From a bacterium (GTDB lineage: Bacteria; Patescibacteriota; Doudnabacteria; UBA920): 64,000 nucleotides of DNA. A model generated the notes under the pieces. That model was not told the DNA's origin, did not search any database, and was given only the letters and a program-made list of their open reading frames with translations. Both the position numbers and the translations under genes were made by a program. The stretch spans positions 626,963 through 690,962 of the forward strand of contig CP064996.1 of NCBI GenBank assembly GCA_016699995.1. Reading direction: 5' to 3'. Shown one piece after another: positions 14,321-20,903 of this stretch. Numbering within the stretch: the stretch's first letter is position 1; every line of letters begins with the position of its first letter.

Positions 14321-14414
14321 GGAGAGGTCGCATAGTGGCCTAGTGCGTCGGTTTGCTAAACCGATGTACGGTTGTAAAGCCGTACCGAGGGTTCGAATCC
14401 CTCCCTCTCCGCCA
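14321..14414 (+). tRNA. tRNA-Ser (anticodon GCT), type II with long variable arm
   Basis: Acceptor GGAGAGG/CCTCTCC plus discriminator G and an encoded CCA. D-stem GCA/TGC. Anticodon stem TCGGT/ACCGA with loop TTGCTAA. 22 nt variable arm. T-arm GAGGG-TTCGAAT-CCCTC. Confidence 0.9.
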
Positions 14415-14418
14415 GAAA

Positions 14419-14446
14419 ACAATCACAGCAATGTGATTGTTTTTTG
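14419..14446 (+). terminator. rho-independent terminator after tRNA-Ser
   Basis: ACAATCACA-gcaa-TGTGATTGT followed by TTTTTT. Confidence 0.6.
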
Positions 14447-14450
14447 TTAA

Positions 14451-14482
14451 ATAAAAAACACGGAAATATTCCGTGTTATTTG
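14451..14482. terminator. hairpin terminator (serves minus-strand 14476 gene)
   Basis: AACACGGAA-ata-TTCCGTGTT flanked by A/T runs on both strands. Confidence 0.5.
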
Positions 14483-14793
14483 TCTTCAAAGCGATAGTAC
14501 ATTACTGCACGCCGCGGGATCCTGCGGATAATATGACGCGTTTTACCCGGCGCTATCTTTTCTACTTTGCCTCGATCTTCCGCCGTGATATTACAGATGG
14601 TAACAAACATCACCTCTTTCATCTTGTTGGTTACTGAAAATTTAGTTGAATAATTTGCTGCGCGTCCCAAGTTCACGTTGAGTTTGTTGGAAATAGACGC
14701 ACCTGTAGCGTGGGCCAAATCGAAGGTAATCGCGTCCCACTTAAACCCATCTTCTAAATCGTAGCCTTGCCCAAACCCTGCTGGAAAACCCAT
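14476..14793 (-). CDS. hypothetical protein (105 aa), divergent from the Ubl operon
   Basis: GGAGGA RBS 7 nt upstream. No recognisable domain. Confidence 0.6.
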   Translation of the reverse strand: MGFPAGFGQGYDLEDGFKWDAITFDLAHATGASISNKLNVNLGRAANYSTKFSVTNKMKEVMFVTICNITAEDRGKVEKIAPGKTRHIIRRIPRRAVMYYRFEDK

Positions 14794-14845
14794 AATCTTT
14801 CCTCCTGAAAAATCAATTACTAACTAAAGAGTTTACCGCTCTTTA

Positions 14846-14876
14846 ATGGTATCGTCAAGAATGGTATCGTCAAGCC
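14846..14876. repeat. perfect tandem direct repeat AATGGTATCGTCAAG x2 in divergent intergenic region
   Basis: 14846-14860 and 14861-14875 are identical 15-mers, located between the 14476(-) gene and the E2-like gene. Candidate operator. Confidence 0.6.
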
Positions 14877-14964
14877 GGGTGATTGTTTTTGTTGACCAAA
14901 TTATATTTTTATGATTCAATCAAAGGTCAGCATACGCTGAAAAACATCTTCAACAGGAGGAAGT

Positions 14965-18794: not shown

Positions 18795-18914
18795 TTGCAG
18801 GTCTTGGAGGCTGGTTATGCTAAAATATAGCTATTAGCTTGCTACATTCAAACAAAATCCGCATAATACTAATCTTCTTCGGACCTGTAACAAAGCCCCT
18901 CTTAGCTCGTCTAT

Positions 18915-19469
18915 ATGAATGAACATACAAACATAAATCCTAATATTATAGTGCTCGCAAAGTCCGGAGCCCAAGAGGCTCTGGCCGATATCTACGAAGC
19001 GTATTACATGCGGGTCTACCGATTTGTGTTCTACCGGGTCAGTCATAAAGAGACGGCCGAAGATATCACGGAAGATGTGTTCATTAAGGCATTTGCGAGC
19101 CTCAAAAACCTTGAAAAAGTAGAAGCTTTCGAAGGATGGCTATTCCAGATTGCCCGCAACATGGTCATCGACTATTACCGAAAAAAGAAGCAGCTCGTTC
19201 CCCTGGACAGTATAGAAAACACCCTAGAATACGATACTAATATAGTTGAGATCATAAACCTACAGATTGAGCAGTCGATACTCATCAAACTGCTAAAAGA
19301 GCTAAACGACGAACAACAATCGGTAATTAAGATGAAGTACTTTGACGAACTCGACAACTCCACCATCGCTACCGTCCTTAATAAAACAGAAGGCGCAATC
19401 CGAGTAATCCAACATCGCGCCATTGCGAAACTTAAAGACATCTTTGACGACACCATCTCCAAACAATAA
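18915..19469 (+). CDS. ECF-type RNA polymerase sigma factor (sigma-70 regions 2 and 4)
   Basis: Region 2 YRFVFYRV...DITEDVFIKAF. Region 4 HTH NSTIATVLNKTEGAIRVIQHRAIAKLK. Confidence 0.85.
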   Translation: MNEHTNINPNIIVLAKSGAQEALADIYEAYYMRVYRFVFYRVSHKETAEDITEDVFIKAFASLKNLEKVEAFEGWLFQIARNMVIDYYRKKKQLVPLDSIENTLEYDTNIVEIINLQIEQSILIKLLKELNDEQQSVIKMKYFDELDNSTIATVLNKTEGAIRVIQHRAIAKLKDIFDDTISKQ

Positions 19470-20629
19470 TGAAGGTAATTAAATACAATTCAGGAAATTC
19501 AGATTCTCTCTCTAATGAGAATGATTTTGATTTCGTCCAGGAATTTACCCAGGAAGAAATGAAGATCGTCGAAATGCTTTCATCTATTCCTAAGTCTAAA
19601 GTCCCAACCCCGACCAAGCAATATCGTTTCGCCCAGCAAAAGCCAAGTCTGGCAAATTCCCTGCTCCAATTCCTGTCCGGCAACAAGCTTGTTACTTTTA
19701 CGGCAGTGTTTGCGTTAATGTTAGTGGGAGCTTATACTGTTGTCCAAAGCGCCGAAGACAGCTTGCCGGGGCAGCGCCTATATTCCATTAAGCGCGCCGG
19801 CGAAGAAGCCCGCATCAATCTGACCTTTAATAAAGAAAAAGCTGCCAATCTTCACTTAGCCTTAGCAGAAAAGCGACTAGAAGAAACCAAGCGGGTCATC
19901 GAGTCCAATGACCCCAAACTGGAAGCTGCCGCTATCACCGCCCTTACCAATCAAACAGAAAAGACATTCGAAGCAGTGTCCCAAATGGCTACAGCTAAGG
20001 CTGTCTCAGAAAACGATACTACTCTCCTAAGCAACCTCGTAGCAATTAATAAGCAGCAAAAGACAGTCTTGGAATCTGCGGGGAAAACCGAGCAAAGCAA
20101 AGAAACTGCAGCAGTAGCGTTATCTGCTACCAAACAGGCCAACAAGGCCATTGCTATGATGATTGCCACTGTGAATGAGCAGATCCTACTGGACTTGCCA
20201 AACAAAATCTCCATAACCGGAGATGTAACCAGCTATGCAAAAAATAAGTTGGTTATAGAGAAAAATTCCTTCATCATCAATGATGCCACTATCTTACTGG
20301 ATGAATCCGGAGATATCGTAGAAAAATATGATAAACTGGAAGGAAAAATTACAGTGATTGGCACTAAAGACAACAATACTCTAATCGCCAAGAAGATTAT
20401 CATTATCGATGGCCTAGCTTCCCTAACCCCAAGCCAGCCTCAAGTTAAGGGTACAGCTACAGTTACACCGAAGCCCGAGACAAAAGCCGCTACTCAGCCA
20501 ACTACTACTCCGACTCCGAAACCAGAAACAAAGCCAGAGCAAGAACCAAGCACCACAGAACCTCAGAAGCCTGCTCAAGCTCAAGCTGGATTCATCTTAG
20601 AGCCAAGCGACAGCCAGTACGCGCCATAA
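19469..20629 (+). CDS. membrane-anchored anti-sigma-like protein (DUF5667-like ectodomain, Pro/Thr-rich tail)
   Basis: Start overlaps the sigma stop (ATGA). Cytoplasmic N-terminus, single TM (LVTFTAVFALMLVGAYTVV). Ectodomain LYSIKRAGEEARINLTF... helical repeats. C-terminal PKPETK repeats. Confidence 0.5.
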   Translation: MKVIKYNSGNSDSLSNENDFDFVQEFTQEEMKIVEMLSSIPKSKVPTPTKQYRFAQQKPSLANSLLQFLSGNKLVTFTAVFALMLVGAYTVVQSAEDSLPGQRLYSIKRAGEEARINLTFNKEKAANLHLALAEKRLEETKRVIESNDPKLEAAAITALTNQTEKTFEAVSQMATAKAVSENDTTLLSNLVAINKQQKTVLESAGKTEQSKETAAVALSATKQANKAIAMMIATVNEQILLDLPNKISITGDVTSYAKNKLVIEKNSFIINDATILLDESGDIVEKYDKLEGKITVIGTKDNNTLIAKKIIIIDGLASLTPSQPQVKGTATVTPKPETKAATQPTTTPTPKPETKPEQEPSTTEPQKPAQAQAGFILEPSDSQYAP

Positions 20630-20726
20630 ATTTTCGATTTATCCTTTCTGGATCGCTGCCCATGAAACTCACGGGCAGAAATCCCGAAGCGATAGTACCT
20701 GACGATACACAAACCATCAAAAAAAC

Positions 20727-20756
20727 GAGCCTATTCTAGAGTCTGGCTCGTTTTTG
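20727..20756 (+). terminator. rho-independent terminator
   Basis: CGAGCC-tattctagagtc-TGGCTCG followed by TTTTT. Confidence 0.6.
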
Positions 20757-20771
20757 ATTTAGCTGGATTAT

Positions 20772-20780
20772 TGGTATAAT
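20772..20780 (+). promoter_or_regulatory. extended -10 element TGgTATAAT upstream of tRNA-Ser(TGA)
   Basis: TGGTATAAT at 20772-20780, 35 nt upstream of the mature tRNA 5' end. Confidence 0.4.
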
Positions 20781-20815
20781 AAACTGGTACGGAGAATACC
20801 AAAATCGAGATATAC

Positions 20816-20903
20816 GGAGAGGTCGCATAGTGGTTTAGTGCAACGGTCTTGAAAACCGTCAGGTCTCAAAGCCTCGAGGGTTCGAATCCCTCCCTCTCCG
20901 CCA
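20816..20903 (+). tRNA. tRNA-Ser (anticodon TGA), type II
   Basis: Acceptor GGAGAGG/CCTCTCC-G-CCA. Anticodon stem ACGGT/ACCGT with loop CTTGAAA. Long variable arm. T-arm GAGGG-TTCGAAT-CCCTC. The 5' 18 nt and 3' 28 nt are identical to tRNA-Ser(GCT) at 14321. Confidence 0.9.

Follow-up and report, generated by a model that had tools for sequence, protein, structure and literature searches.

Do two serine tRNA genes that stand 6.4 kb apart and share identical arms mark the borders of one accessory island? The first-pass annotation of this locus proposed so, and suggested that the repeats could mediate gain or loss of the block between them. The window analysed here is the whole stretch of DNA, 64,000 nucleotides in length. 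Both tRNA genes had been placed correctly, as ARAGORN and Rfam agree:

14321..14414, + strand: tRNA-Ser(GCU), core gene (ARAGORN, gct; Rfam, 58.4 bits; orthologues at the same position in relatives)
20816..20903, + strand: tRNA-Ser(UGA), core gene (ARAGORN, tga; Rfam, 60.2 bits)

Arms of the Two tRNA-Ser Genes

The two genes show the cloverleaf, long variable arm, serine anticodon and positional conservation of bona fide tRNA-Ser, with orthologues in at least eight relatives. They are ordinary single-copy isoacceptors. Pairwise alignment shows an identical 5' segment of 18 nt, GGAGAGGTCGCATAGTGG, as first described, and an identical 3' segment, CGAGGGTTCGAATCCCTCCCTCTCCGCCA, of 29 nt, one more than the 28 nt first given. 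The 24-nt tRNA 3' end is seen in exactly two copies in the window versus 0.00 expected from shuffles. No further copy with up to three mismatches is found in the window outside the two full tRNA-Ser genes.

The tRNA alignment shows that the arms are unchanged across genomes of relatives whose sigma proteins, encoded between the two genes, are only 72–92% identical. The acceptor/D and T/acceptor arms owe their identity to the ancestry of the isoacceptors or to constraint; they are inherited, and are neither a duplication generated by integration nor attachment-site repeats. In one relative (L093), the GCU gene only has a compensatory change in the acceptor stem. Identical arms of two isoacceptor tRNAs are no basis for calling island borders.

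A Conserved Scaffold

The window belongs to a genome of Saccharibacteria (TM7), and the locus is a conserved core scaffold of this lineage, with the order clp ATPase, comFC, tRNA-Ser(GCU), ECF sigma, DUF5667 anti-sigma, tRNA-Ser(UGA), DUF5673 and recG. Besides the tRNA genes, the following parts are considered here.

13581..14267, + strand: comFC, left core flank (Pfam DZR_2 and Pribosyltran; NCBIfam ComF)
14413..14450, + strand: tRNA terminator hairpin, CAATCACA..TGTGATTG followed by a T-run and GTTAA (inverted repeat)
18817..18914, + strand: conserved region with the predicted sigma promoter, kept in L001, L003, L090, L091, L092, L093 and L103
18818-18826, + strand: extended -10, TGCTAAAAT, within this region
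18886-18891 and 18908-18913, + strand: TGTAAC and CGTCTA, ECF-type TGTAAC-N16-CGTCTA, within this region
18915..19469, + strand: ECF sigma factor, lineage core gene (Pfam Sigma70_r2/r4; NCBIfam)
19469..20629, + strand: DUF5667 anti-sigma-like partner, core (Pfam DUF5667)
20932-21408, + strand: DUF5673-like gene, right core flank (Pfam/NCBIfam)
21432-23504, + strand: recG, right core flank (Pfam/NCBIfam)

The assignment of 18817..18914 as the putative sigma promoter is based on its resemblance to the consensus. Both tRNAs and the sigma/anti-sigma pair are arranged in one same order in six relatives (L001, L092, L093, L095, L103 and L104). The comFC gene lies immediately 5' of tRNA-Ser(GCU) in L001, L091, L092, L093, L094 and L103, and a hairpin homologous to the tRNA terminator is also seen in L001, L091 and L096. 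The DUF5667 gene comes after the sigma gene in all relatives, and is followed by orthologues of tRNA-Ser(UGA) in L001, L003, L090, L092, L093, L095–97, L103, L104 and L106. The DUF5673-like gene precedes recG, as in L001, L092, L103 and L104. Orthologues of the ECF sigma factor are found in 507 clusters at E <= 1e-40, with identities up to 92%.

A Probable Insertion of 4.37 kb

The part of the locus specific to this lineage is smaller than the interval between the tRNA genes.

~14451..18816, no strand: lineage-specific insertion, 4366 nt, ends placed to within a few nt

It is positioned exactly between the terminator of tRNA-Ser(GCU) and the sigma promoter, in place of a spacer of ~16 nt found in L001 and L091. 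Colinearity with L001 stops at window position 14450 and is back by 18905 (blastn); the junction sequences were read directly. The terminator hairpin at 14413..14450 is the final stretch colinear with the relatives ahead of the insert. The insertion is absent at the site in every relative where the site is readable. Four distinct relatives or groups (L001/L096–99, L091, L092 and L103–105) have an empty site here, and their sigma proteins are 74–86% identical to that of the window. L090, nearest to the window in sigma identity (92%), is visible only on a 2.4-kb contig that does not cover the full site.

Absence at the same site in close relatives, a mark of an island, is thus observed for 14451–18816 only, and not for 18817–20815, which contains the sigma/anti-sigma pair. 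The proposal of a 6.4-kb accessory segment holds for ~4.37 kb beside tRNA-Ser(GCU); the sigma/anti-sigma pair and both tRNAs are lineage core. The real accessory unit is smaller than 6.4 kb and lies at a tRNA-adjacent hot spot.

A check of composition had been suggested to tell the interval from its surroundings. The GC content is 46.1% in the insert versus 45.0% in the window, and 22% of window segments of equal size are at least as GC-rich. The pooled codon bias is 0.207 versus a null of 0.169 +/- 0.030, with 9% of null sets at or above this value. By tetranucleotide distance, the insert ranks among the top 3% of window segments, a point in favour of gain. GC, GC3 and codon usage do not set the insert apart from the remainder of the window, and the compositional argument for a foreign origin is weak.

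The insert contains an orphan gene and a self-contained four-gene cassette.

14457-14477: bidirectional terminator of the orphan ORF
14476..14793, - strand: orphan ORF of 105 aa (ORF list)
14845..14874, no strand: perfect 15-nt tandem duplication, AATGGTATCGTCAAG x2, in the divergent promoter region (repeat search)
14965..16641, + strand: E2-like candidate, 558 aa (alignments, hhalign, AF2)
16728..17759, + strand: JAMM/JAB metallopeptidase, 343 aa (invariant motif; weak Pfam match to Prok-JAB)
17763..18461, + strand: minimal E1-like adenylyltransferase, 232 aa (Pfam ThiF, 9.4e-19)
18472..18738, + strand: ThiS-like beta-grasp (Ubl) candidate, 88 aa (alignment of four orthologues)
18767..18788, + strand: terminator hairpin closing the cassette (terminator scan)

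The divergent promoter region also contains promoter-like TTGACG hexamers on the minus strand. The orphan ORF has no match in Pfam, NCBIfam, PADLOC or PHROG, and no tblastn match in the fetched loci. The gene content of the whole interval was described correctly at first (a 105 aa hypothetical, a Ubl/E1/E2/JAB operon, and an ECF sigma with its partner), except that the label E2 is not established.

The Four-Gene Cassette

The 558 aa protein is tripartite: the N-terminal domain is followed by a module with HPHV (287–290) and Cys299, which a coiled coil separates from a second module copy without the His and Cys. This internal duplication is detected by hhalign with a probability of 99.7%. In the family alignment, Cys299 is present in 27/27 and P288/H289/V290 are nearly invariant. 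Against eukaryotic E2 sequences, hhalign gives a probability of 81%, with HPH placed on HPN and Cys on Cys. The AF2 model (pLDDT 87) has neither an E2 nor any other match in PDB by Foldseek (best E 0.68). No Pfam match is found for the protein itself, and no Pfam E2 family across the 27 family members.

The JAMM peptidase has a long acidic N-terminal extension and the invariant residues E161 and H225-x-H227-x7-S235-x2-D238 (alignment). Its best PDB profile matches are CSN5 and Rpn11, aligned at the active sites. The E1 is a single ThiF domain (residues 17–201) with an invariant Cys173; its orthologues in the four cassettes are all 232–234 aa long and 62–69% identical. The C-terminus of the Ubl candidate is conserved as (I/V)RGN(N), with R85-G86-N87 in 4/4 orthologues. 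The match to E. coli ThiS is a weak profile match at the C-terminus (E 0.22), and support for the beta-grasp fold is weak.

The same four genes, in the same order (E2-like, JAMM, E1, Ubl), are found on three other contigs (L020–L022), each with different neighbours. The cassette is considered rare and patchy because it has only 4 word-index matches in 5.8 billion proteins and the 558 aa family has ~20 full-length representative clusters among 1.84 billion. A wider set of ~1400 proteins shares the module of this family.

A pathway of ubiquitin-like conjugation is proposed for the cassette. The ThiS-like Ubl would lose its terminal Asn residue(s) to the JAMM peptidase, exposing Gly86, which the minimal ThiF-type E1 would then adenylate. 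The Ubl could be passed to Cys299 of the 558 aa E2-like protein and on to a target. The JAMM peptidase might also reverse the conjugation.

Alternatively, the cassette could serve not protein conjugation but a sulfur-carrier (thiocarboxylate) pathway of the ThiS/ThiF type, or one of peptide adenylation, in which the JAMM peptidase matures the carrier. The closest solved structures of the E1 are ThiF, PaaA, MccB and MoeB, the E1 is a minimal single domain, ThiS gives the best alignment for the C-terminus of the Ubl, and the lack of an E2 match for the 558 aa model agrees with this pathway as well. However, no rhodanese, cysteine desulfurase, synthase or other biosynthetic gene is found in the cassette or its three homologous copies, the partner bears the E2-like HPH...Cys signature, and at the end of the Ubl stands one Gly, not a Gly-Gly pair. 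A sulfur-carrier function is rather unlikely.

Origin of the Insertion

The gap occupied by the insertion contains other sequences in the relatives. In L093–95 it contains unrelated cargo with a 122 aa ORF, and in L090 a P-type ATPase gene ends there. In L003 a large serine recombinase fills it, with a pseudo-T-arm and ..CCGCCA coming next. The spacer between the terminator of tRNA-Ser(GCU) and the sigma promoter is a recurrent insertion hot spot of this lineage. A related recombinase with the same pseudo-arm is seen in L107, adjoining a DUF5673-like gene. The right junction of these elements is inside the tRNA-Ser 3' end, and across the relatives both tRNA-Ser sites have served a single family of large-serine-recombinase elements, joined to the shared 3' end. 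The initial remark that tRNA 3' ends serve as integration sites is borne out there. Because these elements join the shared 3' end at both sites, the conserved identical arm seems to offer them a duplicated attachment target in Saccharibacteria, a group about whose mobile elements little is known.

From synteny, the junctions, presence or absence in relatives and the recurrence of the cassette in other contexts, we infer that the direction of the event was gain. The block at ~14451–18816 was probably inserted into the conserved scaffold at this hot spot, with the orphan gene and the putative Ubl-conjugation cassette as its cargo. Likely routes are uptake of DNA with subsequent recombination, or an integrative element that has since decayed.

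If the cassette were ancestral at the site and independently lost in the relatives examined, its near-native composition would fit, and Saccharibacteria, with their streamlined genomes, readily lose genes. However, this history would take at least four separate losses, all of them precise and leaving a spacer of only ~16–200 nt, and the cassette is rare, patchy and found elsewhere in different neighbourhoods. Ancestral presence is improbable.

The insert could also be a decayed integrative element or prophage which entered via a large serine recombinase at the 3' end of tRNA-Ser(GCU) and later lost the recombinase. The elements of L003 and L107 use the tRNA-Ser 3' ends of this very locus. Their junction, however, is inside the tRNA (..CCGCCA) and the native terminator is displaced to the far side. 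That of the window stays on the tRNA side, and the insert begins past it. No recombinase or transposase domain is found in any ORF of 14415–20815 (Pfam, NCBIfam, PADLOC, PHROGs), in agreement with the initial statement that the interval has no integrase, and the L003 recombinase has no tblastn match in the window. The repeat search found no att direct repeat, tRNA fragment or border repeat at 14451 or 18816, and neither the pseudo-T-arm motif derived from such an element nor phage-like genes are found in the insert. Entry by this route is improbable.

The arms are identical over lengths far above chance and no classic housekeeping gene lies between them, but the idea that the whole 6.4 kb is one island, gained or lost by recombination of arms, is hardly tenable: the six relatives with the common order of tRNAs and sigma/anti-sigma genes have the same arms, the two tRNAs are adjacent or fused in no relative, and the run comFC - tRNA-Ser - tRNA-Ser - recG, a suggested check of synteny, is contiguous in none. 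A deletion between the arms would remove the sigma pair and one essential single-copy isoacceptor: tRNA-Ser(GCU) would be lost by a crossover in the 5' arm and tRNA-Ser(UGA) by one in the 3' arm. tRNA-Ser(GCU) is the only reader of AGY codons in the standard genetic code, and these number 28.5 per 1000 in 16 long genes. A length of 29 nt is at the lower limit for RecA-dependent exchange, which also counts against such recombination.

Comparison with Known Systems

The block resembles tRNA-associated genomic islands in that variable, horizontally mobile cargo lies directly 3' of a tRNA gene, different relatives have different cargo at one spot, and two relatives have a recombinase element on the tRNA 3' end. 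It differs from them in the absence of an integrase and of a duplicated tRNA 3' fragment, and in its start past the tRNA terminator, not within the tRNA. The second "repeat", 6.4 kb away, is a complete, conserved gene for a different isoacceptor.

ThiS/ThiF-type sulfur-carrier systems with a JAMM maturase are represented by CysO-Mec+ and QbsE-QbsD. The cassette shares with them a ThiS-like carrier with residues past the Gly (here ending in Arg-Gly-Asn), a small ThiF/MoeB-type E1 and an adjoining JAMM peptidase. In contrast to these systems, it has no sulfur-donor domain or biosynthetic partner, and its fourth gene encodes a large Cys-bearing tandem-domain protein of an unannotated family.

Bil operons (BilABCD), the ISG15-like ubiquitination operons of Type I/II, have the gene order Ubl, E2, DUB, E1, and their E1 has the architecture IAD-AAD-CYS (PMC10557695, PMC11601596). 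The cassette is similar in its four genes, for a Ubl with a conserved C-terminal Gly and a short tail, a JAB/JAMM peptidase, an E1 and a Cys-bearing E2-like protein, all stand-alone and unfused and with no E3. It differs in E1 architecture, with a single ThiF domain of 232 aa, in gene order (E2-like, DUB, E1, Ubl), in its ThiS-like Ubl, and in the 558 aa E2-like protein, which has tandem active and inactive modules and no detectable similarity to solved Bil structures.

Bub (6E/DUF6527) operons contain a DUF6527 serine protease (BubE), an E1 and E2 without catalytic Cys, and Ubl-E2 and peptidase-E1 fusions, and form Ser/Tyr oxyesters (PMC11601596). They resemble the cassette as a diverged bacterial Ubl/E1/E2 pathway with a peptidase, and the BubCD E1 is among the weak PDB matches of the cassette E1. 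Unlike Bub, the cassette has no DUF6527 (Pfam) and no fusion proteins, and keeps an invariant Cys in both the E1 (C173) and the E2-like protein (C299).

Bil and Bub are the two bacterial ubiquitination families characterised to date, and the cassette fits neither. It can be speculated, tentatively, that it represents an undescribed family of Ubl conjugation in ultra-small episymbiotic bacteria, which moves as a unit into tRNA-adjacent hot spots. Such a family would combine a minimal E1 of ThiF size, a ThiS-like Ubl matured by JAMM, and a large conjugator with an active and a degenerate module, and would add a third architecture to those of Bil and Bub. Possible roles are defence against phages and the modification of host or self proteins. 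If the cassette conjugates proteins, the known range of prokaryotic ubiquitin-like machinery would be wider and would extend into the Candidate Phyla Radiation.

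Gene content and synteny

The 6.4-kb interval between the two tRNA-Ser genes consists of a conserved scaffold and one 4.4-kb lineage-specific insertion, located at a recurrent tRNA-adjacent hot spot. The RNA genes are as follows.

14321-14414, plus strand, tRNA-Ser(GCU), anticodon gct (ARAGORN, Rfam)
20816-20903, plus strand, tRNA-Ser(UGA), anticodon tga (ARAGORN, Rfam)
60729-61116, tmRNA gene elsewhere in the window, predicted tag peptide VNSWNKVVTAFKNAQLAPAFA

The genes between the two tRNAs are those that the first-pass annotation listed: ORFs of 105 aa (minus strand), 558 aa, 343 aa, 232 aa (ThiF family) and 88 aa, followed by an ECF sigma factor and a DUF5667 protein, here called the sigma pair. 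The flanks are comFC on the left, and a DUF5673-like gene and recG on the right.

A recG-anchored scan of species-representative genomes placed the window in Candidatus Saccharibacteria. The contig L001, whose recG is 70% identical to that of the window, is colinear with it. Its order is comFC, tRNA-Ser(GCU), sigma, anti-sigma, a small PD-(D/E)XK gene, tRNA-Ser(UGA), DUF5673 and recG. By blastn, window 13893-14450 corresponds to L001 6319-6924, and window 18905-19469 to L001 7020-7584. Orthologues of the sigma factor form 507 clusters at E <= 1e-40, with identity up to 92%. A metagenome scan with the sigma factor found only relatives of <=47% identity, two of which keep the order from sigma to tRNA-Ser(UGA).

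Interval from tRNA-Ser(GCU) to the sigma gene in contigs carrying sigma orthologues (contig; sigma identity; state of the gap)
L091; 85%; 128 nt, empty
L001, L096-99; 86%; 152 nt, empty
L092; 74%; 207 nt, empty
L103-105; 74%; 214 nt, empty
L093-95; 72%; 790 nt, unrelated 122 aa reverse ORF
L090; 92%; P-type ATPase gene, its 3' end adjoining the sigma promoter
L003; 87%; large serine recombinase, C-terminal part
L100-102; 79%; upstream side rearranged (glmS)
L106; 72%; upstream side rearranged (greA, tmk, restriction-modification/TIR genes)

In every contig of the relatives that shows both tRNAs, the sigma pair separates them. In these relatives tRNA-Ser(GCU) never directly adjoins tRNA-Ser(UGA), and the contiguous order comFC, tRNA-Ser, tRNA-Ser, recG was not seen. 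The first-pass annotation read the whole interval as an accessory segment and possible island, and named conserved gene order in the lineage, together with a composition like that of the core genome, as the finding that would speak against it. The sigma half does not qualify as an island, being conserved in relatives. The cassette half, with the four-gene cassette (558, 343, 232 and 88 aa), stands as an insertion on synteny and does not stand out in composition. The earlier interpretation as a whole is partly supported. The cargo holds more interest than the island question, whose interest is modest.

The gaps of related loci hold various other genes. A PD-(D/E)XK gene precedes tRNA-Ser(UGA) in L096 as in L001, and an 80 aa ORF lies in another gap of the L103 locus. 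In L106 (12133-18480), a block of ~5.4 kb (FIST, dCache, histidine kinase, response regulator) is located directly 3' of tRNA-Ser(UGA), and the restriction-modification and TIR genes (the latter ThsB-like) are upstream of sigma. At this locus the gaps that flank the tRNAs are thus both plastic.

The 4.4-kb insert

Both junctions were read directly. On the left, the conserved terminator hairpin after the tRNA ends with ...TTTTTTGTTAA at 14450; on the right, conservation is back at ATGCTAAAATATAG, 18817. Because conserved sequence stops and returns at these positions, the insert is delimited to about 14451-18816, in place of a spacer of ~16 nt. Within it are the 105 aa ORF, which has a bidirectional terminator of its own, a divergent promoter region, the four genes of the cassette and, at the end, a further terminator.

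14451-18816 (approximate), insert, 4366 nt
14845-14874, perfect 15-nt tandem duplication AATGGTATCGTCAAG, between the divergent 105 aa and 558 aa genes
14433-14444 and 14879-14890, exact 12-nt direct repeat GTGATTGTTTTT, extending to ~17 nt with one indel

Through the duplication AATGGTATCGTCAAG, two promoter-like TTGACG sites that overlap arise on the minus strand. The first copy of GTGATTGTTTTT forms the 3' half of the tRNA terminator; the second lies shortly 5' of the 558 aa gene, and the 105 aa gene module is thus enclosed by the pair. This pair, a repeat near chance level, may mark a separate second insertion. The 105 aa ORF was compared with the 122 aa ORF found in the same gap of L093, and the two are unrelated.

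No att-type repeats or tRNA fragments were found at the insert borders, and the insert contains no recombinase gene, in agreement with the first-pass statement that no integrase is present. The GC content of the insert is 46.1%, versus 45.0% for the window, and 22% of window segments of that size reach or exceed its value. Neither GC3 nor pooled codon bias is distinct (for the latter, 9% of null gene sets deviate at least as much); the tetranucleotide distance is in the top 3%. Elsewhere in the window, about 240 nt of intergenic sequence at 50630-50870 alternate between long poly-C and poly-G runs, with a 112 aa "ORF" of 80% GC. This looks like a sequencing or assembly artefact with no biology.

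Downstream of the insert, a conserved extended -10-like sequence, TGCTAAAAT, is seen at 18818-18826 within the ATGCTAAAATATAG region, before the sigma gene. The sequence TGTAAC-N16-CGTCTA at 18886-18913 is also kept in relatives, and ends 1 nt before the sigma ATG. Compared with known ECF consensus sequences, it resembles the pattern of an ECF-type autoregulated promoter. Transcription from this putative promoter would yield a near-leaderless transcript.

Recombinase elements at tRNA-Ser genes

In L003 (1-1000), a recombinase gene is followed by a T-arm-like hairpin (CTTGGG-TACTTAA-CCCGAG), ACCGCCA, the normal tRNA-Ser(GCU) terminator and the sigma promoter. In the IMG/VR contig L107 (5437-6990), the gene of a related large serine recombinase is complete; the protein is 59% identical to that of L003 over the segment present there, and HNH, methylase and terminase-like genes are neighbours. 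On the 3' side of the recombinase gene is the same conserved non-coding stretch as in L003, with the pseudo-T-arm TGGGTACTTAAC and CCGCCA. Beyond CCGCCA, L107 carries a homologue (27% identity, E 2e-17) of the window's DUF5673-like gene, which is the gene after tRNA-Ser(UGA). The two contigs thus share sequence up to ...CCGCCA and then enter different host contexts. They probably represent right-hand junctions of one element family that would use the shared 3' end of either tRNA-Ser. This reading is based on the right junctions; a scan of viral contigs with the tRNA-Ser 5' arm for the left end of the L107 element found only jumbo-phage tRNA arrays. The general suggestion that tRNA 3' ends serve as integration sites is right for this lineage. 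The window insert is no simple product of the same mechanism, because it starts past the tRNA terminator and lacks the element-derived motif.

Identical arms of the two tRNA-Ser genes

Pairwise alignment of the two genes gives a common 5' segment of 18 nt, GGAGAGGTCGCATAGTGG, and a common 3' segment of 29 nt, CGAGGGTTCGAATCCCTCCCTCTCCGCCA. The identical arms noticed in the first-pass annotation are thus real, with 29 nt instead of 28 on the 3' side. The 24-nt 3' end occurs at exactly two places in the window, both tRNA-Ser, while shuffled sequences are expected to contain 0.00. Five GCU and six UGA orthologues were aligned, together with a tRNA-Ser(UGA) (L027) and a tRNA-Ser(CGA) (L034) of more distant relatives. 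Nearly all close relatives have both segments of the window unchanged, 18 nt at the 5' end and 29 nt at the 3' end, with proteins that have diverged by 8-30%. The GCU gene of L093 has a compensatory change in the acceptor stem (GGAAGGG...CCCTTCC), and its UGA gene does not.

Because the arms are constant across relatives and the compensatory change is confined to the GCU gene, the shared arms are an inherited, selectively maintained isoacceptor feature and no integration product, and the GCU and UGA genes evolve separately. The same change in L093 rejects gene conversion as a necessary cause of the identity. The arms are ancestral, and are at most duplicated attachment targets for the recombinase elements of relatives.

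If the arms recombined with each other, a single hybrid tRNA would remain, and the sigma pair would be lost together with one of the isoacceptors, GCU or UGA. Codon counts from 16 long window genes give AGY at 28.5 and UCA at 5.3 per 1000. The small genomes of these bacteria usually have single-copy tRNA sets. Since both kinds of codons are in use and one isoacceptor would be lost, such a deletion should be strongly counter-selected, judging from the genetic code and the usual tRNA copy number.

Four independent Logan contigs, L096-L099, have their start precisely within the 3' arm of tRNA-Ser(GCU) that the two genes share, and L096-L098 stop inside tRNA-Ser(UGA). These ends are the footprint of a k-mer assembler breaking at the 29-nt arm, and for this reason the locus will often be fragmented in metagenomes.

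The cassette proteins

The 558 aa family has only four members among 5.8 billion proteins in a word-index search, and repeating the search with the family alignment added none. A full profile search recovered about 20 full-length representative clusters, and 1391 proteins with the central module, none of them matching Pfam. Pfam gave no consistent match in 27 members, no relatives were found in viral contigs, and the family profile had no real match among PDB sequences. PADLOC and PHROGs, searched with the 105 aa ORF and the cassette, returned only generic E1 matches. The other three of the four members are found on contigs where the neighbouring genes differ and no tRNA is adjacent. Downstream of each come the same partner genes, for a JAMM protein of ~270 aa, a ThiF protein of ~233 aa and a small protein of ~70-80 aa. 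In two of these contigs (L021 5933-8216, L022 6863-9132), a DUF6008 gene and the gene of a FAD/NAD-binding oxidoreductase (~512 aa) are immediately upstream of the cassette, which could reflect shared ancestry of the contigs or a functional link.

The 558 aa protein contains an invariant Cys299 with HPHV before it. According to hhalign (probability 99.7%), its residues ~180-345 recur in degenerate form at ~405-550. The first copy aligns with eukaryotic E2 at an hhalign probability of 81%, HPH on HPN and Cys on Cys, against manually entered E2 sequences. An AF2 model from 27 sequences is confident (pLDDT 87). In Foldseek, neither this model nor another of pLDDT 64 matched anything in PDB below E 0.5 (best E for the former, 0.68). 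Because a confident model finds no PDB match, the E2 label is unproven.

The 343 aa JAMM peptidase has the invariant residues E161 and H225xH227x7S235xxD238. Its acidic, Glu/Ala-rich N-terminal extension of ~100 residues (window 16728-17040) is absent from the three orthologues. The 232 aa E1 has one ThiF domain with an invariant Cys173 and is 62-69% identical among cassettes; its closest solved structures are ThiF, PaaA, MccB and MoeB. The 88 aa protein, the Ubl candidate, has a conserved C-terminus, ...QILVF..(I/V)RGN(N), and aligns weakly to ThiS.

Protein conjugation could be the function of the cassette, with about even chances, and is favoured over sulfur transfer. The main and serious rival, a ThiS/ThiF-type sulfur-carrier system with a JAMM maturase, is less likely. 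No sulfur-donor or biosynthetic gene is located beside any of the four cassette copies.

Comparison with known ubiquitination-type operons

Two families of bacterial ubiquitination-type operons have been characterised. The Bil operon has the order Ubl, E2, JAMM, E1, and its E1 has the architecture IAD-AAD-CYS (PMC11601596, PMC10557695). In contrast, the E1 of the cassette is minimal and the gene order is different. The Bub operon is characterised by a DUF6527 protease, fusion proteins and Cys-less enzymes (PMC11601596), none of which is seen in the cassette. We classify the cassette as a variant of bacterial Ubl/E1/JAMM operons that differs from both Bil and Bub.
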